The notes beneath the pieces were generated by a model, which ran no database searches, was not told the origin of the DNA, and saw only the letters and a program-made list of their open reading frames with translations. Both the position numbers and the translations under genes were made by a program. Of a stretch of 64,000 bases of DNA, positions 11,532 to 63,842 are shown piece after piece. This DNA is from Macrostomum lignano (lineage: Eukaryota), in the NCBI GenBank assembly GCA_002269645.1, contig NIVC01001988.1, forward strand, positions 151,635-215,634, read 5' to 3'. Every line of letters begins with the position of its first letter. Within the stretch, counting starts at the first letter, position 1.

Positions 11532-11590
11532 AAAGCTGTCCCAGGGCTCTTATTTATTCTTTTGTTTAGCCTTATTAGCTGCCACCAAGT

Positions 11591-27246: not shown

Positions 27247-28413
27247 GAATCCCCTTGAGCCGTACTTTGAAGTGTCGACTTCCTTTACAAGCCGTTCTTG
27301 GGTCAGCCTTAAAAATGAGGGTTATAGAGAAGTTAGCAGTCCAAGTTGCGGGTTGAAGATGTCCTTGGCAAAACTCCTTGCTAGCTTCGGGTCGGGTCGG
27401 CTGTCTTTTCGAAGTCCTTGATGAAAAGTGAATCGCTGAGAGTAGTTGATGACGATCCAGCCTCCATTACAATATTCGTAATATATTTGGCTTATCGTAC
27501 CAGGGGTTTAGCAGCAATGGGAGCGGGTTCCGGCCCGGAAGTGACCGCCCAGCAAAGTTACAACTGACAATTCTACAGCAGAAATGTGTGGCTGCCCATA
27601 CAGTCATGCATTTTTCTCGTAGTTGTTAAAAATACGCAGCAACTCTAATGTGGCATCAGCAACCGGCCTACATGTAAATTGGTCAGCCATGGACTTCTAT
27701 AGACAGGCATCTGGATTGGATGAGGCTGGCTGGCTGGAGAGAAAAACATGGACTGTTTGTCAGTAGGAATACCAAGCAACCCTCCAGACCGTCAAGATAT
27801 TGAACGATAGCGCCAGCCAGAAGGCAGTGTTTTTTCCATAAACGCTAGTGCCTCAAATTTGCTCATCATGTCAGCATGTGTCTGCATCATCTCTGACTTT
27901 CGTGGCCTCTGGCCCTCGCCCAGGCGGAGCTTCTGAACCTTGAACAGATGACTATGGAACCCTGTTGCGGCTAATTCCGTTTTCGCTCTGTATTTTTACA
28001 GCGTACAGATATTAAGTATTGCCCGTTCATGTCCGTGTCTCCATCTGGCAATAAGGTACCGCATTCGCGCCTCGCCTATTGACCGAGTCGAGCTAACTCC
28101 AGCGTTTGCAGCAGTGCTCTTCAGTCAACAAGTCTAATCCAGAGGCTATTATTATTCAAAAGCCCTGAATGGGGTTGCTTTGTTTCTCTCCTCGCACACT
28201 CTGCTAATTGCTTCCGGCCATAGACAAAACGATGGTGTAGTTCGCAAACTGCAATTAAGTGTAGCCTAGCAGCTGCAATTTCCTACATTTTGATTTATGA
28301 GCCTAATTTCGAATAATGTATAAAACTGACCCAACTAGTGGCTATTAAGGTCCCCTATCATTCCCTAAACTCGAAATTGCATTCCCGAATACAGCTACCG
28401 ATATCGCTGCATA

Positions 28414-28925
28414 ATGCTGACACTCACTGTTCTGCCGCTGCTCGTCCTGCTGGCTGCCGGAGCTGCCGAGGCCGGCGGCGTCACCTGCACCAGCCTGCAC
28501 CCGCTGGACAGCATCTGCGCCACAGCTGGCGAGGGCTTCTCCTTTAGCGACGGCTGCAACCGCGTACGCTGTCTTGCTGGCGGTCTCGCCGCCTCCTCCC
28601 GACGTCGCTGCCCGACCGAGGACCCGCTGTCCGCCAAGGACCGCAGCCAGTGCGTTAGCGTTGGCTTCGCCATCTTCGACCGCGTTCCGCCGCGCTCCTG
28701 CCCCAACGCCTCGCCCGAGTCCGTCTGCCGCCCAGGGCGCGGCGGCGGCGGCTTCCGCTTCACCGACGGCTGCAACATGATCGCCTGCTCTGAAGATGGC
28801 TCTGTGGTCGGCGTCACCAGGCGCTCCTGCCCGGCTGGCGAGTCGGACTCCGCCTTCTGCCGATTCATCGAGCGCCTCAATGAGGAGAGCGCTGAGCAGG
28901 GGCCGCCCACCAGCGGCAAGAGGGG
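28414..28925 (+). CDS. Secreted pacifastin-like protein A, exon 1 (signal peptide plus 2 domains)
   Basis: Hydrophobic MLTLTVLPLLVLLAAGAAEA; two DGCN.x.C...CP domains; phase-2 donor GG|GTAGGA at 28925/28926 (if unspliced, stop at 28929). Confidence 0.75.
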
Positions 28926-29603
28926 GTAGGAGGCGTGAAGAAGCAGAACATGTTTACCTCTTCTGCCCGCACTGAACCTTTATTTAAGCAAACAATGTTG
29001 TGTTTTGTTCGCAATTACTGCTTTCGGCGTCTGCACTTTGGCAAGCCTGTTTGACATTTTGAAATAAAACTCTATCGGCTTTCAAAACCAGAAAAACCGG
29101 TAAATGAATCGAACCCTAAAAAGTCGCCGAGGTAACTAAATTGAAGTCTCGCGATTCTCTAAAGAATAGCAAGACAGTTGATTTTAACTTTTCTTAGCAT
29201 AAAATTGATTTGACTTTTAAATTGACTTTTAATTGTTTCCTGCCTGCCTGCCTGTCTTAAAAATATTTAATTAGCACACCGTAACCTTTTAGTTTGCATA
29301 CAGTATATTAAAGGCTTATAAGATAGGGTATCTACCAATAATGCAATAGCTGCACCCCAAGGGTGCTAATCAACTAGTCCAACTATCCAACTATACTAAA
29401 TATCTACTCGCATATATTTATATTATTAGAAGTCAAAAAGGGTGCCAGAAATAGTAGCTTCAAGAGACACAACTTTTTAGATTTTCCATTGAAACAAATT
29501 GTCTTTTTTAACACTGTGAATCGTGTTAGCATTGTCTTACGCAAAAATTCACCAAGCCTGAACAGCCAAGCTGCACCGAACCCATCGTAAAACCGACCTG
29601 CAG

Positions 29604-30069
29604 GTCCATGCGCCGGCGGCGCCGCAACTTCAGCCAGGAGTTCGCTTGTCCGCGGCTGGCAGCCGAGCGGATCTGCGACCCGGCCACCAACGGGTTCACC
29701 TACTCGGACGGCTGCAACACGGTCACCTGCCACGCTGACGGCACCGGCCAGACCACCTTCAAGGCCTGCCCTCGGCCTGATGAGGCTGGCGACAGAGCCG
29801 CAGCTGCCGCGGCCTACTGCGAGTCTGCCGAGCGGCAGATGCGGGCCAAGATGCAGCGGGCCAGCCTCCGCAGGCGCTGCCTGCAGCCGGAGACGGTCTG
29901 TGTTGCTGACGCGGTCAGGCGCAGGCAGGTGTTCAACGACGGCTGCAACAGGTGCGTGTGCAGAGCCCTGGGAGAGGCCTCGTGCACCCGGCGCTCCTGC
30001 CCGGCGCTGCTCATGACAGAGGAGGAGTTCCGGGGCTACTGCGAGCGGCGCGGAGCCGACAGGCACTGA
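29604..30069 (+). CDS. Pacifastin-like protein A, exon 2 (polybasic site plus 2 domains)
   Basis: Acceptor CTGCAG| at 29603, phase 2; RRRRR; last domain has the full pacifastin signature CNRCVC...GEASCTRRSC. Confidence 0.75.
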
Positions 30070-41582: not shown

Positions 41583-44500
41583 TCAGTGGACCGATGAAGA
41601 CGCTAGGGGACACCTCACCGAACACTGGAGCGCGACTAACGGCCTCCACGTCTGTAACGGAACCAGCCACACCAGGAGCAGCCCGAGCAGCGGATCCCGG
41701 AGCTCACCCGATCTGACGCTGGCAAAGGGCTTCCTGACCGCGATCATCCCGGCGGTTTGGAGGACCGAAAAGGATATGAGCAGCGATCATCTCCCCATCA
41801 CCTTCCCGCTGGCAATGGCAAGGCGCGAACTCAAGCACGGTATCACTCGCTGGAGCTTCGCCAAGGCCGACTGGCCCGCCTTCAGACAACATCTAGCCGA
41901 CATCCAAGGACCCCAAGACTGGGGTGACGTGGACCCTGAACACGCGGCCCTCTGCGCCGACATCATCGAGGCCTCCACTCAGGCGATCCCCAGAGGCAGC
42001 CCCAAAAACAACCGCTGCCCTTTCTGGACCCCAGACTGCGAAATCAGCCGACAAGCCTGCATCAGAGCAAGGGCGACGGCCGAGTCCGACCCGACCCCAG
42101 GAAACCTCGCGGCCTACAACGCAGCTCGACATGCCGCCAGCAATACCATCCGCAAAGAGCGCAGAGGCTTCCTGGAAGACCGCGCCAGCGAAATGACGGT
42201 TGACAGCAACCTCTTCCGGCTCCTGCGCGCAGCCAGAGGAGATACGCCAGTCCCGCGCGGCAAAGTCGACATCACCCGGAAGTCGGTCGACGGCGTCGAG
42301 CTCCGACCGGCGCGCACCGACAAAGAAAAGGCAGACACTTTCTGCCAAATCTACGCCGCTGCCGCCAGGGTCCCCCGCCGACAGGAGGACTACAAGATCC
42401 GCTACGAGGCAAGACGCGCCAGGAGACGACCAGTCCATCCGCCGGTACCCTTCACTCTCCTGGAGCTCAGATCAGCTATCCGACAACTCAAATCCGGCAA
42501 AAGCGCCGGGGAAGACGGCGTTACCAACGAGATGCTCAAACGCCTCCCACCGGCCACCGACCAACGCCTCCTGGACCTCATCAACCGCACGTGGATACAA
42601 CAGCGCTGCCCCAGAAGCTGGAGGTCGGCAATCATCATCCCAATTGCCAAAAAAGGGAAGACGCCACCCTCCCAACATCCTACCGACCGGTGGCCCTTAC
42701 GAGCTGCATCGCCAAATGTGCGGAGAGGATGGTGCTCCAAAGACTCAACCGCCAGCTCGAAACCAACGGCTCCCTGTCCCCGGCACAAGCCGGATTCCGC
42801 AGCGGCCGCAGCACCGAGGAGCAGCTCGCCAGGGTCTGTCAGGACATCTTCGACGGCCTGGAACGCTCTCCACCGCACAGGAGCATCCTCGCGTGCATGG
42901 ACTTCAAAGGAGCCTACGAAACGGTCTGGAAGGAAGGCCTCGTTGTGAAGATGACTCGAGTAAAGATCGACCAGAACATCATCGGCTGGACGGAAGCCTT
43001 CCTTTCCGACCGACGCGCAAGAGTCCGCTTCGGGCGCACCCTGAGCCGCCAGCGCGTCTTCCGAGAGGGACTTCCACAAGGCTCGGTCCTGGCGCCAACT
43101 CTCTGGAACATCTACGTGAATGACCTAGAGGAGGCAGTAGTCACGACAGCAGCGCCGGACTGCGGCATCAGCCTCTACGCCGATGATTCGGCTGTCCTCA
43201 GCACCCAGCCCTCACTGGCGAGCTGCGGAGCCAGGATACAACCGGCACTCGACCCTATAGCCAACTGGACCAAAGAGTGGAAAATCACCCTGAGTACCAG
43301 TAAGTGCTCAACATTCACGCTCGCCAAGCACGCAGCCAACGTCTGCCGCCGCATGAGCCGACGCCGACGCGCTCTCGCCGACCTCGCGAACCGCGCGGTA
43401 GGAGCCACCCAGGAGGTGCTCCGGACGGCCTACCAGGCAACCATCCGCGCCGTGGCCGAATACGGATGCGGAGTCTGGGGAGCCAGCGCGGCACCGAGTA
43501 CCAAACTGCTTATCGAACAGCAACAGAACAGCTGCGCAAGAATCATCACCGGATGCATGCTCCCAACTCAAACCACGGAGCTGCTTCGGACGGCCAACCT
43601 CCCCCCCTTTGGCCACACCATCCTGGAACGCACCGCCTGCCTCCGAGAACGGGTGCTGCGCCTCCCGGAGGACGTCCCAGCACACCGGACTGCGGCCAGA
43701 GACACCACCAGCAGACTACGAAACCGCGCCTACGAGAGCGCCCGCCGACAAGAAGAGGCAAATTTTAACGCGCTATAACGACTACAAGCGCCCTTTCCGC
43801 GGCTGCTGGCGGCGAATCGCGAGAGAAATCACCGATCCCTGCGGCCTCGAAGACCGGCCCAGAGAGCCGTTCCCGCCACCGCCGCCCGACCTGGCACACC
43901 TCGCGCTCAACCGGTACAGCCAGACTTTCGACCTCACCCTCGCCGACGGCTGCGGCAGAGCAGTCCCGACGAGCGTCCGCCGCGACAGGGCGATGTCAGC
44001 TCTCGAGCAGCTGACACCCTGTGACATCGACGCGTGGACGGACGGCAGCGTCAAGGAGGGCATCCACGACGCATGGGGTGCCGCGGTGGTCTGCACCCGC
44101 CTCTGGTGCCAAAAGATCACCGCCCCGGCCGGCCGGATCGCATGCAGCTTCCAGGCGGAGATGGTCGCGATCAGCGCCGCCCTCGACTACATTACTCAAC
44201 TCCCGCCAGAGCACGGCCTTACAGTGCGGATCCTCAGCGACTCCAAATCAGCACTCACGGCCCTCCAGAGCGGCCCCAGTAGGCAGGACACCGCCGCCGG
44301 AAGCCGCTGCTGGGAGGCACTGGCCCACATGTCGCGCCCGTGCGACTTCGTCTGGGTCCCGGCCCACTGCGACGTCCCGGGCAACGAGCAAGCAGACCGC
44401 TGCGCCAACGAAGCTAGACGCGGCCAACAGCAGGACGAACCCATTACGCTGCAGGCCGCCAAGGCCGCCATCCGACGCGCGCGGTCCGCCCGCGACCAGG

Positions 44501-44855
44501 AACTGCTTGGACGCCCCTGGCAACGACCACCACGACACCTGACCAGGAAAGAAACGGTGGCGATTAACCAACTCAGAGCCGGGTGCTCCACCCTGGCCGG
44601 GGCCACACGCCACCGGGTCGGCCTGACTGAGAACGCCAGCTGTCCTGACTGCGGGGCGCCCGACACGGAGGAGCATATCATCCTTGAATGCCCACGCGGC
44701 GACGCCCTTCGGGAGAGCACTGAGGACGAGAGGGACATCCGCGACGACCCGGAGCGCCTTCTCGCCCTCCTTCGCAGGTTGGGGCGCCTCTGAGCGCCCT
44801 CCCCCCAGCTGCCAGCGGCAGCGTTGTGGGGCGGTGGAAGAAAAGAAGAAGAAGA
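41583..44855 (+). mobile_element. 5'-truncated I-group-like LINE (APE C-terminus, RT, RNase H, CCHC) with frameshifts
   Basis: SPDLT..SDHLPI; QAGFRSGRST; DFKGAYETV; GLPQGSVLAP; LYADD; WTDGS, AEMVAI, SDSKSAL, WVPAH..PGNEQAD; CPDC...EHIILECP; (GAA)n tail; TSD AGCAGGTCTTCT at 41571-41582 and 44856-44867. Confidence 0.93.
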
Positions 44856-46640
44856 AGCAGGTCTTCTGTGGCCTCGTGAATGAGATGGCCGTCGATGAGT
44901 TCTTTCTGGAGTCCTTTATGCAGCTGGTGATTTGCACGCACGGCCACGCTGTGAAGATGGGCTTGGCAAAGGCTTTCTGCAACTGCATCATGAAAAACCT
45001 GGCCAAGCAGCTCTCCAATCGTGAAAGCGGGAGGAAGCCAAAGATCTCTAAGCTGTCCGGCCTCTCTTCTACGGATAGATGAACCATTTTTAAAGCTACA
45101 AATGTTTCAAGTTGATGAATATATCTAGAACTACATTTTGACTTAGTTTACGCATGAGTTCTGTAATTATTCTTAAAGAAGTGTGCTCGAAGCCTGACCC
45201 TAATTCAATATTTTCTTCACTGTTGCCACATAATCTCATTATAAAGAACAAACTCTTTTAATTAGTAGCAGCAATGTCTCCGAACGAATCGCTTTTGTAT
45301 GCCGTTGGTGCTTAAGACTCTCGAAAGAAATCTCCTGAGAGATAAAATTTCCCTTGATACTCACGCAGTAGCTGGGAATGGTTGCCACACTAGGGTACGT
45401 GTGTGTTGGGAGCTTCCCGTCCAGTGATGCTTTTTTAAGGAGTCCCTGGCATTCACTTTGGGAAGTGGAGGGAAAGTTGAAGCACCAGCGGCGGCAGCAG
45501 CAGAAGCAATTTTTTTATGCATGCATTGACTGATGCTGCAGCTGTACAGAAATAAAATTTCTGAAATGAAGCAGCGAGAAATAAAATTTGTAGCAAGCTA
45601 CTTCAGAAGTCAGAAACAAGCAAAAGCAGGAGCGCATCTTAGGAGACTGGTAGCGATGGTTTTCCGATTTTTTTAACTAGAGGGCAGAAACACTGCTACT
45701 CCAATTTTTTGTCCTGTCACTCAGCGCAGCGCACAATGAGGAAAGAAAGCAAGTGGCTTCAACGGCAGCCATCCGCAATGCCTTAATTCGTTCAATACTG
45801 CAGCTGAAGTATCCACCGCTGCACAAGTTTGGAAGTGGACGCTTTTGTGAAGCTGTTTTGGAATGAGCGATGTCGATTGTGATGCTGCTAATTTCAAGGT
45901 TTTTAGAGCTGCTGCTACTACTGTTATCGATTTTTCTCTTCTGTTGATGTGTGAGTTCTTACAGTGGCGATTTCAGCCAGTTCGGAATGCTGTTGCTTAT
46001 GAACGGAAACGCCAATCAAATAAGAATTGCAGGAAACAAAACTTATGAATTTTGCCTATCAGCATGTGCAGTTGCTAGGGAACAGGAGCAGACAGTTTTG
46101 CACAGTATTGGATTAATATTTGACATTTTTTAGGACACCCAGTATATATACTCGTAGATCAGTCCGGGTCCCTACAGCAACAACAGAAAAACACACTCTT
46201 AGTAAGTCAGTGGAGGCGACAGCGAGCGGACAAAGTCCGGCCAGTTGACAGTGTCGGACGCAACCGCGTTGCTCAGGCAAGGACTACTAAACTATAGACT
46301 ATATAACAAAGTATTCCTAGTGGTCCTTGTGCTCAGGATGCAGTCTACCCATCACCGTGTCCTCGCTGGACCCAGGGTGGTTATTTGTCTCAAAAATGAG
46401 TACTTCGGAGTATTTTTAAATCCAGTTCGCGCACTAACCAGAATACGAGCTAGGAATGAAAAACTCTCAGGATAATAACGTCAAGTTTGGAGATAATTGG
46501 ACAGCAATTACGGATGAAGCTGGAACCAAACTGCTGCACGCAACTCTAAAACTTTCAGACCATTTGGGAGGCAAGCAGCGGAAGTTCAATGGGGATAAAA
46601 GCTGTAAAAACATTCACAAAATGGCAGCATCGCTTCTGTC

Positions 46641-47170
46641 ATGCTTCTGAAAATGCTTTGGCTGCTGCTGATCCTGCTGTGGCCGACTTTCGTGACGGCC
46701 TCTGACGAGCCGAACGTGGAGTGCCCGGAGCTGCACCCCAGCACCTTCTGCTCAGACGACGACATCCCGAGAAACTTCGAGTACAGCGACGGCTGCAGCC
46801 GCTACCGCTGCAACTTCATGTCCTACTCGACTCTGCAGAGCCGCGACTGTCCGCGAGCCGAGTCGCTCGCCGACCAGCGTCGGTGCCGCGATGTCGCCAG
46901 AGCGATTTTCAGTCGTCTCGAGCCGCGCACCTGCCCGAACGCGGCGCCCGCGACTGTCTGCGCCAGCGTGAGGGGCGTCAGAGGAGGAAACGGCAGCGGC
47001 TTTCGCTTCACCGACGGTTGCAACCGCTTCACCTGCGCACCCGACGGCTCCGTGGCGGGCAGCACCCGACTGTCTTGTCCTACTGGAGACGCTCGCAGGG
47101 CCTACTGCAGCTTTGTAGCCAACTTCCAGATTGAGGCAGTGATGAATAGCGCTGATGAGAGCGAAGACGG
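46641..47170 (+). CDS. Secreted pacifastin-like protein B, exon 1 (signal plus 2 domains)
   Basis: Signal MLLKMLWLLLILLWPTFVTA; donor GG|GTAAGC, phase 2. Confidence 0.82.
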
Positions 47171-47343
47171 GTAAGCAGTCGGACACAAACATGATAGATA
47201 CAAACAGTTTAAAAGCTTTCTTGAGTCAATGGTTGGCCTTTGTTATCTCACAAACTTGACGCAAAAAGCACAATGAGAATGTTCACTTTTGCAGCTTCAT
47301 TTTAAAATTCATCAAATGACATTCTCATTACGTTGTTCGCCAG

Positions 47344-47820
47344 TCAACTGGCGTTAGTCGCTCCTAACGTGGAGTGCCCGGAGCTGCACCCGAGCACCTT
47401 CTGCTCAGACGACGACATCCCGAGAGACTTCGAGTACAGCGACGGCTGCAGCCGCTACCGCTGCAACTTCATGTCCTACTCGACCCTGCAGAGCCGCGAC
47501 TGTCCGCGAGCCGAGTCGCTCGCCGACCAGCGTCGGTGCCGCGATGTCGCCAGAGCGATTTTCAGTCGCCTTGAGCCGCGCACCTGCCCGAACGCGGCGC
47601 CCGCAACCGTCTGCGCCAGCGTGAAGGGCGTCGGAAGCGACCAAGACGGATTCCGCTTCACCGACGGTTGCAACCGCTTCGCCTGCGCACCTGACGGCTC
47701 CGTGGCGGGCAGCACGTGGCGGAGCTGCATCGCAGGCAACGCTCGCAGGGCCTACTGCAGCTTCATCGTTGAAGTACAGATTGATGCTGCTGGCGAAAGT
47801 TTAAACCGGAGTAGCGTTGA
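47344..47820 (+). CDS. Pacifastin-like protein B, exon 2
   Basis: Acceptor GCCAG| phase 2; 477 nt (symmetric); donor GA|GTAAGC. Confidence 0.8.
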
Positions 47821-48625
47821 GTAAGCCCGGGGTTGCTGCGGTTTGCAAAAAAAGTGTACGCAAAAAGTCGCATGTCTTGTTTGAAAGAGCATGTTTTGAG
47901 CATCCATCCACCGAAAGATGTATTGGCAGAGATGAGCAATTTTTGGTTGCTACGAAAATAACAATTCAAGGATCGAACCCATCTGATAAGTCGTAGGAAA
48001 TCCATTATCAGTAAGATCGTTACTCTGTCGAGAGGCAACAGTAAAGGAGAAAATATTTCAGAGGTTTAAAACCGTTGCGATGTGAGTGGCGGTCCAGAAC
48101 CAAACACTTGGACTGGGCGTCGGGGAGCTCCCAGCCACACCACTGTCATTGCTAGCGGGTCGCAAAGACGACGGACTTGCATGAGGATGTCCGCATTCCC
48201 GCTACTTTCTCAATGAGCACAATGCCAAATCAAACTCTCAGGCTTGCTGAAATACGAGTAATCGGCCTGGACGATGTCATCCACTCCGACTGTTCTTTTA
48301 ATGTTTTGAAGACTCTCAAGGATGTGCGAGCGTATTGTAGCCTTAGGTTGCTGGGCGGCTTCTCGATTGGTGAGCTGCCATTAGAACGAACGAATTCTGG
48401 CCTAGAAATAAATGACAGCCAGCTTCGCAAAGTTACTTGTGCCTTTGTCGATAGACAATTTACTCCTACGTAATTTTACGTGAAGTTGAGTATCTCAAAT
48501 AATATAGATAGAACATGATTAAGATATATTTTTCTAACCTTTCTGCAAACCGGAATCCTAATTATAGGGTTACATCGTATATGGAAAAGTGAAATGCATT
48601 GACAAGAACTTTTTTGCCTTTCAAG

Positions 48626-49095
48626 AGAATTTTCGACGGCAAACGTGGAGTGCCCGGAGCTGCACCCCAGCACCTTCTGCTCAGACGACGACATCCCGAG
48701 AAACTTCGAGTACAGCGACGGCTGCAGCCGCTACCGTTGCAACTTCATGTCCTACTCGACCTGCAGAGCCGCGACTGTCCGCGAGCCGAGTCGCTCGCCG
48801 ACCAGCGTCGTTGCCGCGATGTCGCCCGAGCGATTTTCAACCGTCTCGAGCCGCGCACCTGCCCGAACGCGGCGCCCGCAACCGTCTGCGCCAGCGTGAG
48901 GGGCGTCGGAAGCGACCAAGACGGATTCCGCTTCACCGACGGTTGCAACCGCTTCGCCTGCGCACCTGACGGCTCCGTGGCGGGCAGCACGTGGCGGAGC
49001 TGCATCGCAGGCAACGCTCGCAGGGCCTACTGCAGCTTCATCGTTGAAGCACAGATTGATGCTTCTGGTGAAAGTTTAAACCGGAGCAGCGTTGA
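48626..49095 (+). CDS. Pacifastin-like protein B, exon 3 (1-nt deletion near 48758)
   Basis: Acceptor TTCAAG| phase 2; 470 nt, one short of a multiple of 3; TCGAC-CTGCAG versus TCGACTCTGCAG in sister exons; donor GA|GTAAGC. Confidence 0.72.
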
Positions 49096-49706
49096 GTAAG
49101 CCAGGGGTTGCAGTTAATTACGTCGAAGTATGTTCTGTTGATGCTCGCGAGAAACGGCATGATGTGTTTGATAGCGAGCGTTTTTGCAATCCGTTGGAAC
49201 ATTCGCAAATTTCTGCAAAGTAAATGGAGTTTATAATCAGTAAAACAGAAATAAGCCTTCTCGATTTTTCTGGCATCCTAATATGACGATAGTTTAATTC
49301 AGATTATTTACTCAACCGACTTACATCATGCAAAATCTGTACTGAGTTGTTTATTAATGAAGGAAGTGCATTACGAAAACTTCTGGGTCCTTCAAAAATG
49401 AACATTCGTCCTTCTTTTAGTGGCTTGCGATTAGCTCGTAAAATAAAAAGTTATTTCGGGATCGGGTTTAACTCGAACCCCGAAAAAACGGCAATCTTAA
49501 ACACCACAAGGACCCTCCCGGGCTACGCCGGTCTGTCGGGGTTTCAGTGAGGTCATTGAACATTGAACTCAGAAATATTGTAAACTACCAACCTAGAGCA
49601 CTTGCAAAGCGATTGACTTGAGCTTTCTATTACACTCCAAATTTTACTAGGGCGCACTGATTAGGTGGCGCATTTCAATATTTTCCCAATCATGTTATAC
49701 TTATAG

Positions 49707-50163
49707 AGACTTTTTGACGGCAAACGTGGAGTGCCCGGAGCTGCACCCGAGCACCTTCTGCTCAGACGACGACATCCCGAGAAACTTCGAGTACAGCGAC
49801 GGCTGCAGCCGCTACCGCTGCAACTTCATGTCCTACTCGACTCTGCAGAGCCGCGACTGTCCGCGAGCCGAGTCGCTCGCCGACCAGCGTCGTTGCCGCG
49901 ATGTCGCCAGAGCGATTTTCAGTCGCCTTGAGCCGCGCACCTGCCCGAACGCGGCGCCCGCGACTGTCTGCGCCAGCGTGAAGGGCGTCGGAAGCGACCA
50001 AGACGGATTCCGCTTCACCGACGGTTGCAACCGCTTCGCCTGCGCACCTGACGGCTCCGTGGCGGGCAGCACCTGGCGGAGCTGCATCGCAGGCAACGCT
50101 CGCAGGGCCTACTGCAGCTTCATCGAACGAGACCAGCAAGTTGACGGCATGGAAGTTGGGTGA
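49707..50163 (+). CDS. Pacifastin-like protein B, exon 4 (probably terminal)
   Basis: Acceptor TTATAG| phase 2; 2 domains; TGA at 50161-50163. Confidence 0.78.
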
Positions 50164-53104: not shown

Positions 53105-54410
53105 TGCTGTTGCTGCAAGTTGTGGATGAAAGTACATAGAATAATGCAGAAATTCAGAGCTGCATTTCCCAATAACTTCTAGGATTGCCTCCTCTCTATG
53201 ACTTTGCTACCCATAATCAGGGTACTTTAATGGCAACTTATGTTTAATACTCATGTCATTGTATAAATGTGCTTTTAATAAATACATTTCTGTTGAAATC
53301 AAACATGTATCAATGCAAAAAATGTAAAAAACATGGTGTGCACCATTGCCAATCTCAGTATGCCAGAAGGAAATTTTGGGCCTTGTCTAGTTCAATAACT
53401 CTTGAAGATGACAATAAACATGTACCAATCACTAAAATACATGAGGCACTTACAATTGATACTATGTCAAGTCATTCTGAATAACTGAATAAGTGGATAC
53501 AGTTGCATTAAAACATGACATGATATCATATTTGTATTACCATTCAATAATGAAAATAATTTTATTTAAAATAGTATGATACATAAGTTACTTTGATATA
53601 TACAATAATAAAGAGTTTTTGCTTAACTCCTATCATTCTTTTGAAGTTTTTAAATGTGCAATTTTGTAGACATAAGCATCATTAATACTTTAGCAGAATG
53701 GGCGCCCCCACCTTCCCGCTGTGTCCCTCCGGGACAGCCCTGCAGTTAAATCATTAATACTTCTATAAGATATTCTTACATACAAAGCATGCTGATAATA
53801 GTGAATTTGTCTGTGTTGCAGCATTGGTCAATTTAATTTTCATTTGAGATAAAGTTGGAGTTAAAAAAAGACGATTTTATTGTTATGTCAGCAGAAGACA
53901 AATCATCAGATTTTGAGTCTGATTAGAGCATGAGGTAAACAGCAGCGACAAAAAAGCAGACAAAATGTATATTACTTGGCACAATGGCATGACCACTATG
54001 CACTGCAGTACTAGTAGAACAAAATTTGGACTATCAAACCAAGATGGCCTATCTACTAGGGATCCATAACTATCAGATCCACATTATTGTCTTAACTTTC
54101 TTGAAGCTAAGCAGCCTAAGTGCAATTGTCATATGCTTTGTATCAACCAATCACCATTTGAAAATTATCAATACATATGGCATAAGAATGAGACTACAAA
54201 GCCTCCCAAGTTTGCTTAAGAGAGCACCCTTATATCCAAAACTTGCATACTGCAGATAAGAAACATTTGCCTTTATGCAAGAACTTGACACTTGAAGTTG
54301 CACAAGGCAGTTGTAATAATATTAGTGGCTATCTATGCTTTTCTTTTTTACTATTACTAATACTATTTGAAATACTTGGGGTTTTTCTCGGGGTGGCCTG
54401 GTAGGTCTTT

Positions 54411-54610
54411 GAATCCCACTGCTGCCACCAGTGAAATAGATGGGGTTTTCTTGGGGTGGCCTGGTAGGTCTTTGAATCCCACCGCTGCCACCAATGAAGT
54501 GGAATGGTGTTTGCTTCCCGGATTAGGCCCTTGCGGATTACCTTAAACCTCGGCCTCTTCTTCTTGGGAAGTTCTCTCAACTCTCAGTAGCGTAGGTAGT
54601 GCTGCCACCA
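54411..54610 (-). promoter_or_regulatory. Cluster of three tRNA-Leu PBS copies (54601-54610, 54474-54493, 54411-54430); the last two lie in a 63-bp tandem duplication
   Basis: TGGTGGCAGCGGTGGGATTC is a 20/20 complement of the tRNA-Leu 3' end; the sister copy has 1 mismatch. Confidence 0.82.
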
Positions 54611-55500
54611 GTTCCTTCAGGTCTCGGCCCTCGATGAGGTGAGCTTCCCGTCGGAACGAAATAAACAAGTCAACGAACTCAGCACAGCGTGTAGATTTGC
54701 AGATTAATGAACAAGGCGTCCTGATCAGCAGATCCCCGCCGGGCTCAGGGGTGGCTGGGAAGGCAGTGTTAGCCTCCCTTAGGCTTGGGCTTTAGTGGGG
54801 TCTCAGTCAGACCAGTACAAACGGATTCAGTACGCAAAGGGCACTTAGTTAGACACTGACGCACACGGGATCTTAGTGAATTCTCCGCAGATAAGAAGCC
54901 ATTTCCTTGACGGAAACAAGGGGAGAGGGGTCCTATTTATAGTCGGGAAACACCCACGCACAAGACCTCGTGACTTGTTCTATTTTTAGAACTGACGTCA
55001 CTTGAGATCTCGAGGCAGGGTCTCAGTGCGCGCAAGACCTCGTGACTCGTTCTATTTTTAGAACTGACGTCACTTGAGGTCTCCGGCCAGAGTACACGTG
55101 GCTGTGACTCAGTTGCTATTTTTAGCAACATGAGTCACTCCTCTCCTTAGAGAAGGGAGGGGTCCAAAAGCACGTGATTCTCCCGGTAAACAGGGCCAAC
55201 GAGTGCAGTAAACATGTTTACTGCACTTTAGGACTCGAAGAACGCAGAGTCTGTCATGTGACTTGCTCACAAGACAGAGGAAAACGGGACGGGAACGAAA
55301 CAGAGACAGCCCACAGCAGAGAAGCTGAGGGCTGAGAACAGAGACGCAGAAGGGCAGAACAGGCCAAGGGCAGCAACAGACGGGCTAAGGGGGGGGGGGG
55401 TGGGAAGCTGACCAGCGGCAGACAGCAACCCAGGGCGAGGGCGAGGGAGACTGCTGACAAAGTGGGACGCCTAACATCAACTAGCAGATCACTACATATT
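54495..55500 (-). mobile_element. Putative LTR (element 2) with TATA box and 72-bp enhancer repeat; 5' boundary uncertain (55137 or ~55496)
   Basis: TATAAATA (54941-54934); duplicated modules at 54961-55006 and 55033-55078; ends ...TTCA one nt before a PBS. Confidence 0.6.
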
Positions 55501-55876
55501 CTTTACTATTTCTATTCTATTACTATTCTTACTATTCACCCTAACAGAAATGACTACTAAGTGATGCCATTTTTGAAGATGCGACCCAGGCTACTAGCTA
55601 GTCAACCAATGCAACTTAGGCCACTAGCAAGTCAAACAATGTAGCCGAGGCCACTAGCCAATCAACTAACCTAACCTAGGCTTCTAGCCCGCTTCCAGTC
55701 AATTCGGCGACAACCGATTCGGCGACAAGTCAGTTCGGCGACAGCCAATTCGGCGAATGCTAATTAAGGCGAATTAAGGCGGATCATTGCATAAAGCTAC
55801 TAAAACTCGTTAAATTTTACATACGTATACGCATAGCCATTCACCCCTGACCATTTATTATAGAAAAATTGTTGGA

Positions 55877-57973
55877 GTGCTGGACCGGCTGCTCGCCCAT
55901 GGCGTAACGCTTAACACCGCCAAGTGCCAGTGGGCTGCAGAGTCCGTGCAGTTTCTGGGCTACATCGTCTCGGCGAGAGGCCTTCAGCCGATGCAGTCCA
56001 ATGTGGAAGCCATCGAAGCGGTGCCGGAGCCTCAGAACACCGAGGCGGTGGCCTCATTTCTCGGAATGGTAAAGTTTTACTCGAACTTCCTACACAACCT
56101 ATCCGACATCGCCGAGCCGCTGCTGCAGCTACTTCGCAAGGACCAGCCTTGGAACTGGACAGCGGACTGCCAGAAGGCCTTTTGGAGGCTTAAGAAAATG
56201 GTAGTGTCTCCAACGTGCCTGCGATTCTTCTGTCCCGACGACAAGATAATCGTGGCCTGCGACAGCTTTGCGCACGCTCTGGGTGCCGTGTTGATGCAAG
56301 AAGACAGCGCTGGCGTTCGCAAGCCAGTTGCTTTCGCGTCGAGGACTCTGTCGGCGACCGAGCGCAAGTACTCCGCGTCAGAAAGAGAGGCGCTGGCATG
56401 TATCTTCGCCTGCGAGCGTTGGCACTACTTCCTGTTCAGCCGGAGATTCGAACTGCACACCGATCACCAGGCTCTGACGACGCTGCTGACGGCTCAAGGC
56501 AGCGGCCACCGACCTTTGCGGCTGCACCGATGGGCCGACCGCCTGCTCGCGTACGACTTCCAAGTGTGCCACGTTCCCGGCAAGAAGAACATCGTGCCCG
56601 ACTTTTTGTCACGCCATGGCGCTTTCGGAGAAGATTGCGCTGAAGATCCGACCGAGCACCAGGTGAATGCCGTATTGTTATCGGGCGCGTTGGAGGTTGT
56701 CAGCGCAAGCGAGTTGGCCGAGGCATCCCTGCAGGACCCGGTAATAAGCGAAGTGATAGCTCTGACGCTCCAGGGGTGGCCGAGCTCCATCAAGCATCTG
56801 CGGTCGGAGTTGCAGCCGTTCTGGAGGATCCGAATGCAGCTGACGGCCTGGAATGACGGCAAGTGCCTGGCCAACGGCACTCGAGCGGTGATCCCCGCAT
56901 CCCTGAGGGAGAAGACGCTGCAGCTGGCACACTTCGGACACCTCGGCGTGAGCAGAATGAAGCAGCACTGTCGGGACGCCGTCTGGTGGCCGCAAATCGA
57001 CCAGCACATTGAGGAGTTCGTGCGGCACTGTGAGGCCTGTCTGCTAAGCGAGAAGAATTTCAAGCCATCCAAGACGGTTCTGACCCCGACAAAGTGGCCG
57101 ACGCGTCCATGGGAGGAGCTTCAGCTAGACATCTTTGGGGAGCTGCACTCGGCTCCGAACTCCTGCCGCTTCATCCTGGTGCTGTAAGACTTGCACTCAA
57201 AGTGGCCGGAGGCTGCCTGCATGTCAACCATCACAAGCGCTGATGTCATCGACGCCTTGACAACGTGGTTTAGTCGTTGGGGGCTGCCGAAGAGTATCAA
57301 CACAGATGGAGGGCCTCAGTTCGTGTCCGGTGATTTCGAGGATTTTCTCCGGCGCTGTGGCATCCAGCATCGGCAGTCGCCGCACTACCACCCTCAGGGC
57401 AACGCGGCGGTGGAGCGTTTCAACCGGTTTCTCAAGGACGGCCTCAAGACGCACTTGGAGGAGGGCTATGACTTTAAGGACGCGGTGAAGGCACTGCTGT
57501 GGTCGTACAGAGCCACCCCGCATGCACTGACTGGAGTTACGCCGGCGGAGCTGATGACAGGCCGGAAGATCAGCACTCCCCTGACAGCCCTACAGCCAAG
57601 GACGGCAGCGCGGCACAGACTGGCGGCCGGCATCAAGCGGAAACAGCAGCGAGTTTTCAACCAGCTCAACTCGACCAGGAGACCCCCGCCGACTTTCATG
57701 GTCGGCGACTGGGTGCGGGTGAAGCGGCCGTTCGCCCGTGGCAAGCTAAGCAGCCGCCTGTCCGAGCCTCGTGAGATCTCCCGGATCGCGAGCGCCACCA
57801 CCGTCATCCTCATGATGGCTCCCGCTGGCACGTCGACAATTGTGTTCGAGTGCCGCGGCCCGCCGGAGCGCTGCCACACTGGCCCGCTACGGCTTCCAGC
57901 GCGGCGGCGATTCCGGCGGAGGCAGCAGAGCCAGCGCAGCCGCAGCAGACAGCCCAGACTGCGGTTCGAGTGA
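55877..57973 (+). mobile_element. Gypsy/Ty3 pol fragment (RT end, RNase H, integrase), 5'-truncated, with in-frame stop at 57185-57187
   Basis: KCQW...VQFLGY; CDS..ALGAVL; VAFASRTLS.TERKYS..EREAL; HTDH; H.GHLG...WWP; DGGPQF; HPQGNAAVERFNR. Confidence 0.93.
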
Positions 57974-58247
57974 GCACGAGGACGCGAGCGCCTCCACAGT
58001 GGTACGGGGAAATTGTGACGCATTAACTGATTTATTAGTGACTGCTAACTGACTTTCTCACGAATGATGTGCATTTGAAGCCAAATTAGTTGTTTTCAGA
58101 CTAATATTGCGATTTAATGCTCAGTGAAATACTCAGTGTGATGATCTACTTTTATTCCTTCGATGCTCAGTCATGCGCTTTTATTCCTTGTTCAATATTT
58201 CGACGAATTCGGTTTTCGCGATTCCACTAATCGGAAGGGAAGGTGAA

Positions 58248-58419
58248 TGTTGTGTTGCTACTCAATGTGTGTGTGTAGTTGTGTGTACGTTCGTTGTACA
58301 TCTGTTAGCTATCGATCGCATTACAATATATGATATATAAGTGAGAGCGCGTTGAGTTTGAGAGCTTGAGAGTTTCGCAAACAAACTTGCAGACTGGCTG
58401 GCTTATTCATTATACAACA
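58248..58419 (+). mobile_element. 3' LTR of the Gypsy fragment (172 bp)
   Basis: PPT GGAAGGGAAGG at 58233-58243; TGTTGT...ACAACA termini. Confidence 0.8.
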
Positions 58420-59441
58420 GATACATGGCCATGTATACCATTTTCCCACCTGACCCAACATAATGGGCTTAAATAGTTTGATGGTTGGTTATTTAGGATT
58501 ATTATTATATTTTATATTTACTATACTACCATTGGGGTTAATATAATAAATAATAATTCTTACGGTGTTAGTTATGGTATGTTACATATATACTAGGTTG
58601 GTTCGCAACATTTGTCAAGAAAAAATCGCCACTTAATTGCTACCAATCGCCAGCGATTTGCTGGCGGCTTTTCAAGAGGGAAATTCTTGTACTTGTATCT
58701 CAACATTTGTTTTACTGAAATACATTTGACATTTAAAACTGGTAAAAAGCCTGTCGCCAAGTTAACCTGTTGCCAAATTTACTGGTTCCCTTCTAGCCTA
58801 CCTATCAAGTCCAACTAGTGCACTTGCAATAGAGAAGCTGATACCTAGCTTGAATAATATCATTAGTGGCATTGTGCCACTCTCTACTAATAGTGGCATC
58901 AGCAAGGTGGCATCTTTGACTTTTATGCCAACCATGACAGATGGCAAGCCCATGTAAATGGGTGAAAAATTTTATTTACCACTAACTTTGGCTTTGTGAA
59001 AGATGAATTACAAGCAATTAAACAATCTGGCTAATCTAATAGGCATGGTCTGTTAGTCAGCCAGCCAATTACAACATTGCTACTAGATAATTATAATCAT
59101 AAAGCAATTTTAAGAGCAAAAAATATGGCTAGCCCAAGCTGCCAGACCATAAGCACTTAGACCTTTTATATTAATCAAAACACAAATACATTGGTTCCAT
59201 TTTGTTGTAAACCCTAAAAATGTTTTTATGCTAATGATAGATCCAAATATTTGGATTTGGAATCTGAATCCAAAAAGATGTTTTACTTTTTTAGAAATAC
59301 AAATGTTTTGGATTTGGAAAAATGTTTCCAAATATTTTCAAATATGTCAAATATAAAAAAATCTAGAAACCTAAACAAATTCATGTTCATAGAAGAAATA
59401 AAACTTTTGAAATAATAAAATATATTAAAAAACTGTGACAG

Positions 59442-59744
59442 GTAGAAAAGCTGCAATTCCACATTGAGCAATATGCGCTGAAGGTAGCATATCATTGGGC
59501 TGACACGCGACAATGCTACCCTCAAACATTGCAAGTCTGGCCACACCTGAAGTTCCTAAGGGAACAATTTAGCCACCAGGAAGCCGTTGCTATCCTCTTA
59601 GATGTCACTCATCATCTCCAGAGGGCCATAAAAGTCAGCCTGCCACCCTCATTAGTGATATTGGACGAGGAGTATCATTGGTTTTTCGCCCAGATTGGTT
59701 GGCCATATAATCGCAATCTCCTGGAGCCTTGCAGGTTTATTTGA
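59442..59744 (+). CDS. Unknown ~100-aa domain associated with LTR element 3 (exon-like, preceded by TGACAG)
   Basis: Open frame VEKLQFHIEQY...GWPYNRNLLEPCRFI*; homologous to 13008-12713 on the minus strand. Confidence 0.6.
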   Translation, partial: VEKLQFHIEQYALKVAYHWADTRQCYPQTLQVWPHLKFLREQFSHQEAVAILLDVTHHLQRAIKVSLPPSLVILDEEYHWFFAQIGWPYNRNLLEPCRFI

Positions 59745-60070
59745 ACTGTTAATGTGAACTAACTATTGCATTGCCTTTAATAATAGTTTGCTTTTAATAA
59801 TACTATTGCCTTTATAATAGCTTGCTTCCATAATAGTTTTGTTTTATAATAGTTTTGCTTTATAACAGTTTTTCACTTAATTATTGTCTGCCTTCATAAG
59901 TTTGCTTGTATTTTGTACAATCTTTTTTATGCACTAATTTGCTAACTTAGCACCCATATATATCTTTTCTTTTGCACTTAGCTGTGCACTTTTCACCTAT
60001 TTTACATATTGATATCAATTTTTCATTGTATAATAGTATTTTGTTCAAACTTGATATTAAGAGGAGAAAT

Positions 60071-60812
60071 TGTGGTAGTGCTTCAATACTGTAATAATGT
60101 GGTAAGTGGGTGCCTCCCACTGAACTGTTTGAATTTTGTCCTATTTTTGGTCGTTAATTTGTTGTTCATCCCGGGTTTGGCCCTCCTATGTCCACCTTAA
60201 GGTGCTGCCCTGACGTCACCCTCCGTCATCTACCGCTCCCTGGTTCTGGCCCCCGCCCCCAGTTCTGGCCTTTGTGCCCCTTTATTTGTTCATTGTTAAT
60301 TTTGCCCATCTTCTCTATCTTAATCTTTGTTTGGCCCTAATTATGTCTGCAATGTCCATTTTAATTAACATTTATCCCTTTTTATGTTCGTTATGTGCCA
60401 CTGTATGGACTGTTCTATAGTATTTATAGCTTGATGTGAGCACCGTCAAAATAGTTGTCCTTTGTTTGTTTAGGTTTTGTTTGTTGCTATTCCTCCTTTA
60501 CATTTGAACTGTTAACTTCTTATGCCTTAATACTTGGATACCCAATTACTTGCAAGTTAATCAACAACTAATATTGTCTAATTTATAGTCGCCTTCGGCA
60601 CCGCCTTGCGTCTCGTAATATTTTTCACATTAGTAATAATTATCTACAACTTATCCTACTTTACTAATAAACAAATTCAACTTGTTACTTGTTGCTTATT
60701 TAAGACCATAGCTTATCTTTTAGAGTAATTTGCCCGTGGGGCATAAAATAACCCAGTCTCATCTCAAAGAAAGCTCTAAGACTTCTCAACATTCCGTAAT
60801 ACACAAATTACA
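60071..60812 (+). mobile_element. Putative LTR (element 3), flanked by PPT upstream and PBS downstream
   Basis: PPT AAGAGGAGAAA (60059-60069); TGT...ACA; PBS TGGTGGCAGCG at 60814-60824; CRE TGACGTCA inside. Confidence 0.62.
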
Positions 60813-61401
60813 GTGGTGGCAGCGCTACTCTACTGGAAGTAATCAGTCAAGCATTTGAGGTATATCAATTCGGTGTCCAAGGACCCTATCTGAACACTTG
60901 TGCCTAACGAAGACTGCTTGTCTACAACCAAACTACCCTCTACCCAGAATTGAGGACCCTGGCAGTCGGAGTACCAAGAGAAGTTTCGTTGAGATTTGTC
61001 TGTGCAATATTTCCAGATTTAATTCATGCAAATTCAACATTGGTGGCAATTCAAAATAAAACTGCCCCCTCATTGGTGTCAGCAAACTAGCTAAAATAGA
61101 TTTATTGCCAAATCCCTCACCCCCTTACTTTTCTTTCTCTGCCCCTACCTCAATAATATACAATTTCCTAGAAAACTGAATTTGGGCAAAATAAATATTT
61201 TGCACCATGTATTTTGTTTTACTACATGAAATATTTGGGGAAATATTTTTGTTATAAATGTATTAAGAAATCAAGGGTATATATAAGAGTGATTTTGCAA
61301 TAAATAAACTCTGTCTATTAACTGTGAACAAGTATTGCAAACAAAAATAAGCAGTTTAATCTATATATTTCAAAGTCTTTTGAGTTTAATAGTGACTTAT
61401 T

Positions 61402-62676
61402 CAGTGTTGGGCACTTCCGTTACGAGTAACTTGTAAATGGTAACGCAAGTTACTTTTTCGTAAAGCGTTCCTTACGCAAGTTACTTTCCTATTTTGGTAA
61501 CGGAGTAACAGTAAGTTACTCAAATTTCAGAAGTCCATTACAGTTACTTTGCAACAATCGCAATATTTAAATTTAAAACTGATATGCTTAGCTATTACTC
61601 CAGTTGTCACATTTTTAGCATTTTTCATTCCTAAATTCAAAACTAAGTGAATAATATCATACGGTATTACGCTGTAATTAATAAAGAAATACTTGAAACA
61701 TGTTTTTACTTTGTTATTTTCGGTAAAATATTTTTGCTTTTCATTTTTAAGTTAATAAAAATATTTTGTTTAGTTCTTAGAAACAAAAAACTAAAGAAAT
61801 AAATTCATCTGTAGTCTCCACAAATCTACTCAGTGATCGACGTAGCCAGGAATTTTAATTGGGGGGGGGGGCGGGTTGGCCTGGCTGGCCATGCCTCATG
61901 CCATTGCCACTTTTAGCGCCGCAGGCACTCATTTTAGTGCCGCAAGCACTTATTTAAGCACCGCAAGCACTCATTTAAGTGCCGCAGGCACTCATTTAAG
62001 CGCCGCAGGCACTCAATCGCCTCATGGTTTTTGGTACCCGCTACGCCCAACCTTACCCCCCCCCAGGTGGGATGTCTTGCAGGTAGGGTGAAGTTGCCAC
62101 CCCAACAATTGTTAAGGCGGCCTCCCTGGCTACACCACTAAAGTCCACTGGCACTGCACTGCACTGCACAATAATTTAATATTATGATAATAATTGAAAA
62201 TAAATAAAAAGACTAGTAAAGCAGACTATAGAGTGGAGTAAAGCCAGGTACTTATTACTAGCAATGTATTATTAAGGACAACTGAAGTTACGTTAAGTTG
62301 TCCTTGTGTATTATAACTTATAATGTTATTAAAAATTAAATTGCGTTTGCCTTTAACGTTTCTGACCTTCAGCTTCTTTTCTTTTTACGGAAAGGGCCTA
62401 AAGTGATTAAAATTTAATACAGTTACTGAAATTAATGTTGTTTTATTCTTCCTCCTGGCTTTCGCGATCATTTGTGCTGTTCCAGCGCATTTGCAATGTT
62501 AAAAAAGCAAAAAATTTTGTTAATAACATAGGTAACGGAAGTAAGTAACAGAAATAACTTAAAAGTTACCAGGTTTTTGTATAAAGTTACTAGGCTAACA
62601 TAAGTTACTTTTTAAAAAGTGGTAACTTAAGTTACAATAATGCAAGTTACTTTTTTGAGTAACTTGCCCAACACTG
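61402..62676. mobile_element. Non-autonomous hAT element
   Basis: 12-bp TIR CAGTGTTGGGCA; perfect 8-bp TSD GACTTATT (61394-61401, 62677-62684); subterminal GTAAC/GTTAC repeats. Confidence 0.92.
61831..62140. mobile_element. MITE nested in the hAT element
   Basis: Inverted ends (C)GTAGCCAGG / CCTGGCTACACCACT, poly-G, internal 21-bp repeat; TSD not resolved. Confidence 0.65.
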
Positions 62677-63842
62677 GACTTATTCATTTTAAAAAGACTG
62701 AGAAATGATTCTAAGAAATTTGCTAAGAAAGGGAATTGGGACTAATTCTTAGAGATATACTAAGAGAGGCGCCATGACCTTCTAGTCTCGGTAGATGCCC
62801 GATTAGGACTAACTAGGCCCCCTAACTCATGTACCAGTACTAGACCGCTTAGGCCATATATAAGATACTACCAGAGCTATACATAAGATGCTACCAGAGC
62901 CATACATAAGATGCTACCATAGCTATACATAAGACGCTACCAGCCAGAACATTACTAAGAACGCTACCCAAAAATATATGAGATTCAAACAAACAGTTAG
63001 GATTTAAAAAGGCAGAGCTTAAGCCCTATCACAGCCAGTACCAGCAGTAGGATATTTGTAAGGACAGGACCAAGAAGCCTATCACAATAGTAATATAGAC
63101 ACAACTGCCATGTCTTTAAGTGTGGTGTATTTTTTATCAAATGGTCAATTTACCACAAATAAAAATGAGACTAGAGTAGGCCTATAGACATTAGACTTAG
63201 ACATAGTCATAAACTATAGTCTATAGTAGTATAGAATAGGTAGGCCTAGCCACTTAGGCCTATGTTGAAGAAAATCTCAACAGAGTAAGCCCTAAATATT
63301 TCAATATTTAGTTAATTAGATCCATTTGATTTGAATAATAATTAGGAAATTATGCTAATAAACACCAAGCATGTAGGTGCTTTTTGAAATTTAAAAGCAC
63401 AATGTGCTTTTGCCTTTTTGCTTTTCATATCATAGAAATTATTATGACATGACAATTGACATGTTATATTTATAATACACTAATAGAGAGCAATGATCTG
63501 AATCTAACCTAGGTCTATCTATAATATATTTAGATCATCTAGGCTAAGTCACCAACTTCAGTAAGGTAATGTGGTCCACAAATCTGCATTCAAAAAAATG
63601 GTACTTTAAAAAGCTAAAGTCACAGGTCGCAAAGTCTTTGAAATCCACTTAGAAGATTTAAATGTCAAAGTCCGTCGTCGTCTTAGTTTTCGAAGTTAAT
63701 TTTTTTACATATAAAAACAAATCACTTTTTAGTTTACTTCCTGTTAAACTAACAAAATATTTAAAAAATAAAATTCGTATCTGAATTACAATATCGAATG
63801 CCTGAGTTAGCTTTGTTCATTTGTTTTAACGGGCTACCATGG

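Follow-up and report, generated by a model that had tools for sequence, protein, structure and literature searches.

An accessory gene of Macrostomum lignano Ty3/Gypsy retrotransposons and the promoter-type motif it has in common with linker-histone H1 genes

A window of 64,000 nucleotides of Macrostomum lignano DNA (contig NIVC01001988.1; positions below are those of the window) contains two diverged peptides, copy A (59442-59744, plus strand) and copy B (12713-13771, minus strand). Both are remnants of ORF3, the third gene of a Macrostomum lineage of Ty3/Gypsy long terminal repeat (LTR) retrotransposons, and ORF3 is a new protein family. Judged from its sequence, ORF3 may be a nuclear factor that raises expression of the element or blocks its silencing, a reading to which we give a probability of about 0.5. 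A tblastn search of the window with copy A matched 13008-12880 in frame -2 at 35% identity and 12889-12716 in frame -1 at 41% identity, in keeping with a sequence-only reading of this DNA that had counted about one third of residues as identical. The match had E(2)=2e-12 and the next best match in the window E=0.1. The two copy B pieces scored 57 and 113 compared to maxima of 52 and 67 in 10,000 shuffles of A, with 0 of 10,000 shuffles reaching the observed scores, which upholds the homology proposed by that reading. DNA similarity between the copies was as slight as it had remarked and was confined to one 68-nt patch at 74%. It had taken the peptides for two isolated remnants of ~100 aa, and here it fell short, as the full gene has three to four times that length and its family is large, with many recent copies still intact. 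A genome search with copy A gave 169 candidates, 150 of them scored, and at least 137 matches at E<=0.01 (the count is a lower bound), many of which were open frames of 280-480 codons.

The parent element is clearly a Ty3/Gypsy LTR retrotransposon. In full copies (e.g. the sampled loci L031, L033, L047, L052 and L064) the order LTR, primer-binding site (PBS), gag, pol, spacer, ORF3, polypurine tract (PPT) and LTR extends over ~10 kb. ORF3 is a single-exon, sense-strand frame of 280-480 aa between integrase (IN) and the PPT and 3' LTR, a position that bears out the earlier suggestion of a retroelement accessory protein. The gag frame encodes 341 aa with a CCHC knuckle, and pol is one 1516-codon frame in the order protease, reverse transcriptase (RT), RNase H and IN; the identical protein record P0009 carries Pfam RVT_1, RT_RNaseH and rve. 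LTR pairs were 94-100% identical, mostly 99.7-100%, with TG..CA ends. Target duplications of 4 bp were seen (e.g. L040, L041, L052, L053 and L070), and the PBS complement equaled a tRNA-Leu gene end in three of six loci scanned. The nearest RT-RNase H outside Macrostomum was ~42-51% identical. Recently moved copies, with LTRs 99.7-100% identical, carry intact ORF3. Identical or near-identical proteins on record are Macrostomum lignano hypothetical proteins, and no papers on ORF3, or on any retrotransposon that employs a promoter element of H1, were found in the open-access literature; in PMC12801592 the term 'ORF' had 0 occurrences in supplement 1 and the available part of the text. Contigs of four runs from four studies, whose RNA nature is a guess, cover ORF3; two break at the predicted ORF3 start region and two run through, with no splice joint, and they were not used as evidence.

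The predicted ORF3 protein consists, from N to C terminus, of an acidic amphipathic helix, a low-complexity linker, a conserved block, a second linker and a domain of ~115 aa. The first 25 residues had a net charge of -6 to -9 in 27 of 27 full frames (example helix LDDFLRELL, L050), and the conserved block (EAPLRQPTRP..NKRPR..QKRAA in L048) has nearly invariant KR motifs that resemble a nuclear localization signal (NLS). AlphaFold2 predicted five helices for the C-terminal domain from a 19-sequence alignment (predicted local distance difference test 88, predicted template modeling score 0.80), and in the full-length model the N-terminal helix and the domain were predicted to be ordered and the middle disordered. 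A homodimer prediction made without an alignment scored 0.00 and gave no answer. ORF3 sits in the position of an envelope (env) gene and could in principle be an env substitute for cell-to-cell spread. This is hardly credible, as none of the 27 full frames had a membrane segment (best 19-residue hydropathy 0.45-1.11 in 27/27), and the N-termini are acidic, with no signal peptide or MG start. The same traits set ORF3 apart from sORF2-FAST fusogens.

Relatives of ORF3 were found only in Macrostomum records and in one further assembled protein. Pfam, PDB sequences and the ESM Atlas gave no usable match to the domain, and a Pfam profile search of 19 members gave none better than E 0.017, in agreement with the sequence-only reading, which had recognized no known domain. 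A first word-index search for longer proteins returned nothing, although relatives exist; repeated with a better alignment it returned only P0002 and P0005. A hidden Markov model search of 1.84 billion representative proteins gave six matches: four Macrostomum records, one assembled protein of the same architecture (P0002/P0007) and P0006, a repetitive bacterial protein with eight short stretches that was dropped as spurious. Derivation of ORF3 from linker-histone H1 coding sequence was also rejected (hhalign probability 0.8% against the globular domain). Foldseek against PDB and BFVD returned nothing at E<=0.001, the MAIN/VANC fold gave no clear match among the fold searches, and the best VIA-align Z scores were 7.3 and 7.7 with none >=8, values that establish neither a new fold nor kinship. 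The alignment to CUL3 residues 25-147 (Z 7.1, root-mean-square deviation 3.9, 101 aligned; Z 6.5 with a second model) raises the idea of a cullin mimic, in which the domain would imitate cullin repeat 1 and tie up E3-ligase adaptors. We consider this very improbable, as Z<8 is helical-bundle background at which unrelated folds score equally, and hhalign gave a probability of 0.2% against a shallow profile of four cullin N-termini from the same genome.

ORF3 is preceded by a conserved motif and a TATA box. The motif ends in GGTCCAGTTT and lies ~100-140 nt upstream of the ATG, and in many families TATAAATA comes after it. The motif was present in 55 of 69 sampled loci as compared to 0.45 in shuffles. 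Genome-wide the pattern gave 333 matches and its reversed control 0. Thirteen places outside the elements, followed up among the 100 matches listed, comprised tandem arrays at ten loci, two histone H1 genes and a lone site without explanation. It stood before 12 of 15 linker-histone H1 matches, 210-266 nt upstream of the globular-domain match and in four of five paralogue groups, and before none of 16 H4 matches. Two variants of the motif exist at both ORF3 and H1, the retroelement variants mirroring two H1 classes. L044 is identical to the H1 locus L157 over 30 nt, and L031 to the H1 locus L154, whose class ends in the histone stem-loop, over 21 nt. Across 764 Mb there are 41 copies of this 21-mer, 37 of them beside ORF3 (assigned by matching coordinates by eye against the genome search matches) and four before H1. 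An 18-nt pattern for the other variant had 52 matches: 35 at ORF3, three at H1, 13 in arrays and one unchecked. A TGTCAA box was located 44-58 nt upstream in two of four H1 classes and three of six ORF3 promoters checked. We infer that the motif and TATA box form an internal promoter of ORF3, and the conservation of the motif across H1 paralogues suggests a host factor.

The H4 box has a GGTCC core that is bound by HINFP, and in flies HINFP reportedly drives H1 to repress transposons. Vertebrate H1.0 genes likewise have an element, the H4 box, before the TATA box of a linker-histone gene (H4 box/H1 box; available text of PMC6027317), whereas the flatworm motif is 21-30 nt long, accompanies H1 genes of the stem-loop as well as the poly(A) type and is absent from H4 genes. 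The tandem arrays (L135-L143 and L145; G000 C628, C568, C767, C864, C1061, C112 and C111) have a period of 34-41 nt, are independent of each other and have varied spacers, and no LTR or ORF3 match was found in 13 of 13 loci. Such arrays could titrate a binding factor. They also bear on the idea that ORF3 itself binds the H1-type motif, autoregulating its gene and damping host H1, with the arrays as amplified targets. The motif is single-copy before ORF3 and H1 and tandem in the arrays, and the targets of VANC, in the portion of PMC5735166 available, form tandem repeats too. One motif is, however, common to domains only 30-50% identical, the arrays lie outside the elements, and conservation in H1 paralogues points to a host protein, so that we regard binding of the motif by ORF3 as improbable.

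The ORF3 domain is under purifying selection, as had been proposed for its past. Domains were 25-82% identical, and in 163 of 171 pairs synonymous sites were saturated or undefined; the median ratio of nonsynonymous to synonymous rates (dN/dS) was 0.35 in seven measurable pairs. For L031 and L093 the proportions of synonymous (pS) and nonsynonymous (pN) differences were 0.81 and 0.10. L031, L041, L045 and L093 had RT and IN 100% identical (RT pS 0.02-0.05) together with domains 49-81% identical (pS 0.71-0.86), and L050, L052, L055 and L057 repeated this pattern of a shared gag-pol with unlike domains. An RT pS of 0.02-0.05 stood against an ORF3 pS of 0.67-0.86 in seven of 12 pairs compared. 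Because near-identical gag-pol carries anciently diverged ORF3s, we conclude that old ORF3-LTR cassettes recombined onto few backbones; at least 17 domain types (<82% identity) were sampled on few gag-pol backbones. Identity broke 10-105 nt past the motif in 28 of 35 pairs that were >=92% identical upstream of it, pairs which are not independent and in which two of the 28 breaks are local dips only. An ORF3 type is mostly, though not always, found with its own U3 type, which is what close linkage by itself would produce. Elements with a chimeric ORF3 or with an ORF3 and U3 that do not match were mobilized as well. Chimeras with the N-terminus of one type and the domain of another were seen in L094 and L026, and L033 (G000:C2404) and L094 (C3845) are tandem elements with a shared LTR.

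ORF3 was also retained in partner elements that lack RT. It was intact in 16 of 23 RT-less loci as compared to 15 of 16 RT-bearing loci, one of the latter garbled in the domain (L085 regrouped). The RT-less partners encode a mini-Gag of their own of 191-196 aa, intact in 10 of 15 checked (L035:1792-2370, L036, L043, L049, L056, L063, L069, L092, L096 and L097) and 41-52% identical to the autonomous Gag. Among themselves the mini-Gags had pS 0.52-0.83 and pN 0.09-0.26, indicating purifying selection; their zinc knuckle is altered and they contain a hydrophobic helix. These partners are an old satellite lineage that repeatedly gained new ORF3-LTR ends. One recent RT-less element holds an insert with a 733-codon frame inside inverted repeats, DNA-transposon-like (L035:3397-6690). 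That RT-less partners keep both mini-Gag and ORF3 would fit a protein that acts post-transcriptionally, in RNA export, packaging or entry of the particle into the nucleus; on this view the H1 motif is just a strong promoter of dividing cells. The Arg-rich motifs together with conserved R/U5 repeats as possible RNA sites, and the lack of a DNA element common to internal promoter and LTR, are consistent with this as well. Acidic activation domains are typical of activators, however, and the acidic helix conserved at the N-terminus is more in keeping with such a protein; near-identical gag-pol across unlike ORF3 types also speaks against a tight interface of ORF3 with Gag or IN. We therefore see a post-transcriptional role as unlikely, if still a serious candidate.

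A domain-only relative of ORF3 lies outside any LTR element. P0005 (Mlig026206; LTR-free locus at G000:C846 near 44000-44600) is a 118-aa frame in three copies 98-100% identical, in which the motif, the TATA box and the frame are kept and the acidic helix and NLS-like block are missing. Within 20-25 kb around the three copies there was no gag or pol (tblastn E<=1) and no LTR (blastn and nhmmer), with an LTR profile that does find both window LTRs. Host genes adjoin it on both sides, and its domain is <=42% identical to any element domain sampled. The copies differ by four synonymous and two conservative replacement differences with no indel (binomial P ~0.035, by hand). The gene is listed in a transcriptome (PMC7336406), and named annotations are transcript-based according to the available text of PMC5730564; the listing fits LTR-independent transcription from the motif. 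By its sequence, Mlig026206 is possibly a domesticated transposon gene. Its 'Non-Specific' label (PMC7336406) was set aside as a default class of 47,371 rows that says nothing on tissue, and the gene ids were absent from the supplements of PMC5816591 and of the heat-shock study. Upstream of the domain-only gene, at 750-1100 nt, lie one or two histone-type 3' stem-loops on the opposite strand without a histone gene (L079:6630 and 6967, minus strand; also L071-L073, L081 and L082).

The persistence of this domain-only copy amid host genes could also mean that ORF3 limits its own element or excludes competing types, or that it dampens the element to the host's benefit, with the H1 link tightening repression. 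The 17 or more domain types on few backbones would suit such a role, as under frequency-dependent selection. We judge it quite unlikely, as recent copies with LTRs 99.7-100% identical carry intact ORF3, and elements with a chimeric ORF3 or an ORF3/U3 mismatch have transposed too.

Under the preferred reading, in which ORF3 is a nuclear factor that promotes expression, an ORF3-only subgenomic mRNA would be made from the internal promoter in the same cells and at the same times as H1 mRNA. The basic NLS-like block would take the protein into the nucleus, the C-terminal domain, under diversifying pressure, would dock on element DNA or RNA or on a chromatin factor of the host, and the acidic helix would recruit activators. 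Co-packaging of the subgenomic RNA, or recombination at the conserved patch, would yield cassette swaps, and many old domain types would persist because of ongoing change on the host side. The domain-only gene outside the LTR elements would be a competitor of ORF3 kept by the host. The complete scheme, in which an anti-silencing gene is wired to the H1 promoter element, has a bank of swappable cassettes with mini-Gag satellites and is opposed by a truncated, dominant-negative host copy, strikes us as doubtful. If true, the counter-measure would rise whenever the host repressor H1 does.

Several observations count against the nuclear-factor reading and the scheme built on it. Function is assigned by no experiment, homologue or fold, and the domain has a net charge of +1 to +7. 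The motif is missing in 14 of 69 loci, including those of the L058/L059/L091 family, the most divergent one, where CCAAT boxes and a TATA box take its place. The GGTCCAG core was found in 0 of 25 LTRs, which speaks against a shared response element of the foamy virus type, although other shared sites may exist. Clustering of the breakpoints may only mirror the best-conserved DNA patch. Near-identical domain pairs share the U3 type in seven of nine cases and do not in two, and domain identity correlates with RT (rho 0.76) as well as with U3 (0.67). ORF3 of RT-less elements is 98-100% identical to that of the autonomous partner in nine of 15 cases, where it may have hitch-hiked, and the retention counts come from RT-less and RT-bearing loci sampled through ORF3 matches. 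Selection on the LTR-free copy rests on the four versus two differences.

ORF3 belongs to none of the systems to which we compared it, differing from each in orientation, domain or shared response element. By analogy it might work most like the Grande/Retand accessory genes or foamy virus Tas, and its promoter borrowing would recall Cassandra and 5S rDNA. Tas is a nuclear protein with an acidic activation region, encoded by a 3' accessory gene that has an internal promoter. The ORF3 element in contrast lacks env, showed no homology to it and has no second copy of its internal motif in the LTR. The Grande accessory ORF is reportedly nuclear with its own promoter, traits to which ORF3 can set a motif, a TATA box and NLS-like motifs, all at the level of sequence. 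In the part of PMC11963269 available, Grande/Retand elements (Tat, TRP28) resemble the ORF3 elements in having an extra gene between pol and the 3' LTR, recent and non-autonomous copies and a proposed regulator. Their gene is antisense, plant-specific and of PF04195, whereas ORF3 is sense with no Pfam match, and so parts from them in orientation and domain, and its promoter motif is common to host H1 genes. Cassandra has a host housekeeping promoter (5S rRNA) in a retroelement and mirrors host variants (10.1101/2023.07.14.548913, from the available portion), but that promoter is a Pol III promoter in a non-coding element's LTR, and the ORF3 motif is Pol II-type, internal, tied to a protein gene and absent from LTRs. 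VANC of VANDAL elements is likewise a lineage-specific accessory protein of many diverged types (PMC5735166, in the part seen); it differs in serving a DNA transposon, in its MAIN-like fold (PMC13547354, also in part) and in its proven sequence-specific demethylation, and ORF3 and U3 are not strictly coupled. LTR elements of bdelloid rotifers (ORF3s) and Drosophila MDG1 (sORF2) are animal Ty3/Gypsy elements with an extra non-env frame (available text of PMC5408684 and PMC11952523), but those frames are captured enzymes or membrane proteins expressed from spliced or genomic RNA, and ORF3 is soluble, an orphan, and has its own promoter-like module.

Extra genes are known from LTR retrotransposons, but little has been described from animals of genes that have a promoter of their own and a soluble product of nuclear type, and this one is a relevant case for how retrotransposons persist in animals whose stem cells are guarded by PIWI-interacting RNAs. 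The family provides a new protein family with a confidently predicted fold, a 21-30-nt motif, a diversity of types and a candidate host derivative, in a species where RNA interference and transgenesis are possible. A by-product is the probable H1 cis-element of flatworms.

Copy A is a 5'-truncated dead relic. Its remnant (59440-59744, plus strand) comprises the final 100 codons of the C-terminal helical domain, open over 59442-59744, with the start codon and promoter lost. It groups with L031 and L035 (support 99/95) and is 74% identical in amino acids to intact L035, with pS 0.80 and pN 0.12. Splicing into TGACAG|59442 had been suggested; likeness to intact relatives begins at 59440 within the coding frame and no polypyrimidine tract precedes it, so the site marks where the copy was truncated, and no splice acceptor need be invoked. 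The PPT lies at 60059-60070 (plus, by sequence and in the same position as in L035). Stop-to-LTR distances were 326 nt in A and 352 nt in B, close to the 327 and 353 nt first given, although neither exact value stood. The 742-bp LTR assigned earlier to copy A turned out to be an unrelated one. The copy's own 3' LTR (60071-63086, plus) is in three pieces, 60071-60089, ~61150-61401 and 62685-63086, which were 74-85% identical to L031/L035-type LTRs (blastn) and matched an LTR profile with nhmmer E values of 2e-37, 1e-10 and 2e-8. It is broken after 19 nt by an inserted LTR and leader fragment (60090-61150, plus, right junction approximate) and resumes near 61150-61165. The inserted LTR (60090-60812) has TGTAAT..ATTACA ends, a PBS-like sequence of its own at 60814-60824 and 0 blastn matches to LTRs of the ORF3 family. 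A second insert of 1275 bp (61402-62676, strand not assigned) is DNA-transposon-like with terminal inverted repeats, flanked by the 8-bp target duplication GACTTATT at 61394 and 62677, and we infer it to be hAT-like. Copy A was also considered as a second domesticated gene and rejected on the nested LTR insertions, a longer end branch and the absence of a start codon or motif. The Gypsy pol upstream (55814-57973) was rejected as its pol, being only 25-34% identical to the pol of ORF3 elements and having its own LTR, which ends near 58420; with the Pfam domains RT_RNaseH and rve, 55814-58420 is the 5'-truncated pol and short LTR of another Ty3/Gypsy element.

Copy B is dead as well, full-length and broken. 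On the minus strand an upstream module (13772-14130) contains RFX-like half sites and CCAAT (14023-13985), the H1-type motif (13901-13875) and a degenerate TATA (13864-13856), and is kept at 71-92% in other families whose ORF3 DNA is not. ORF3 (12713-13771, minus, three-frame translation) includes the domain at ~13050-12713, and its 3' piece is 95% identical in amino acids to intact L047. A single frameshift had been counted; there are at least four frame changes (near 13580, 13410, 13260 and 12890) and a premature stop near 13030. The PPT at 12361-12373 (minus, by sequence) is followed by a 3' LTR (11485-12360, minus) of about 875 bp rather than the ~770 bp estimated before, 77-82% identical to the L046, L047 and L063 LTRs (nhmmer E 4e-62 and 1e-12). 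This LTR contains relic LTR-end and PBS copies near 11670, 11588 and 11531. Similarly, in window 11485-11680 and in the LTRs of L031, L044, L063 and L070, the U5 end consists of several nested, decayed LTR-end and PBS copies, as if the LTR grew via repeated primer-site capture; upstream of these copies come AACGCTACCAG-type repeats and a conserved block that looks structured. In the first 260 nt of U3, TTC(N3)GAA occurs in 16 of 25 LTRs and TTTGTTT(T/A)-type sites in 23 of 25, counts that have no shuffle control; we assume these to be STAT/BCL6-like and forkhead/Sox-like, respectively. The promoter module of copy B stands head to head, at ~450 nt, with a SETD2-like methyltransferase frame (14582), and a shared or co-opted promoter is possible.

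Elsewhere in the window, 54370-55460 (minus) holds an LTR with tRNA-Leu PBS copies of yet another element, kin pieces of which occur in L053, L098 and L134. A cluster of small secreted cysteine-rich repeat proteins with SDGC..C.C units, presumably pacifastin-like, occupies 28369-30069 and 46608-50163 in several tandem copies, and a broken non-LTR retrotransposon with endonuclease, RT and RNase H pieces lies at 42204-44793.

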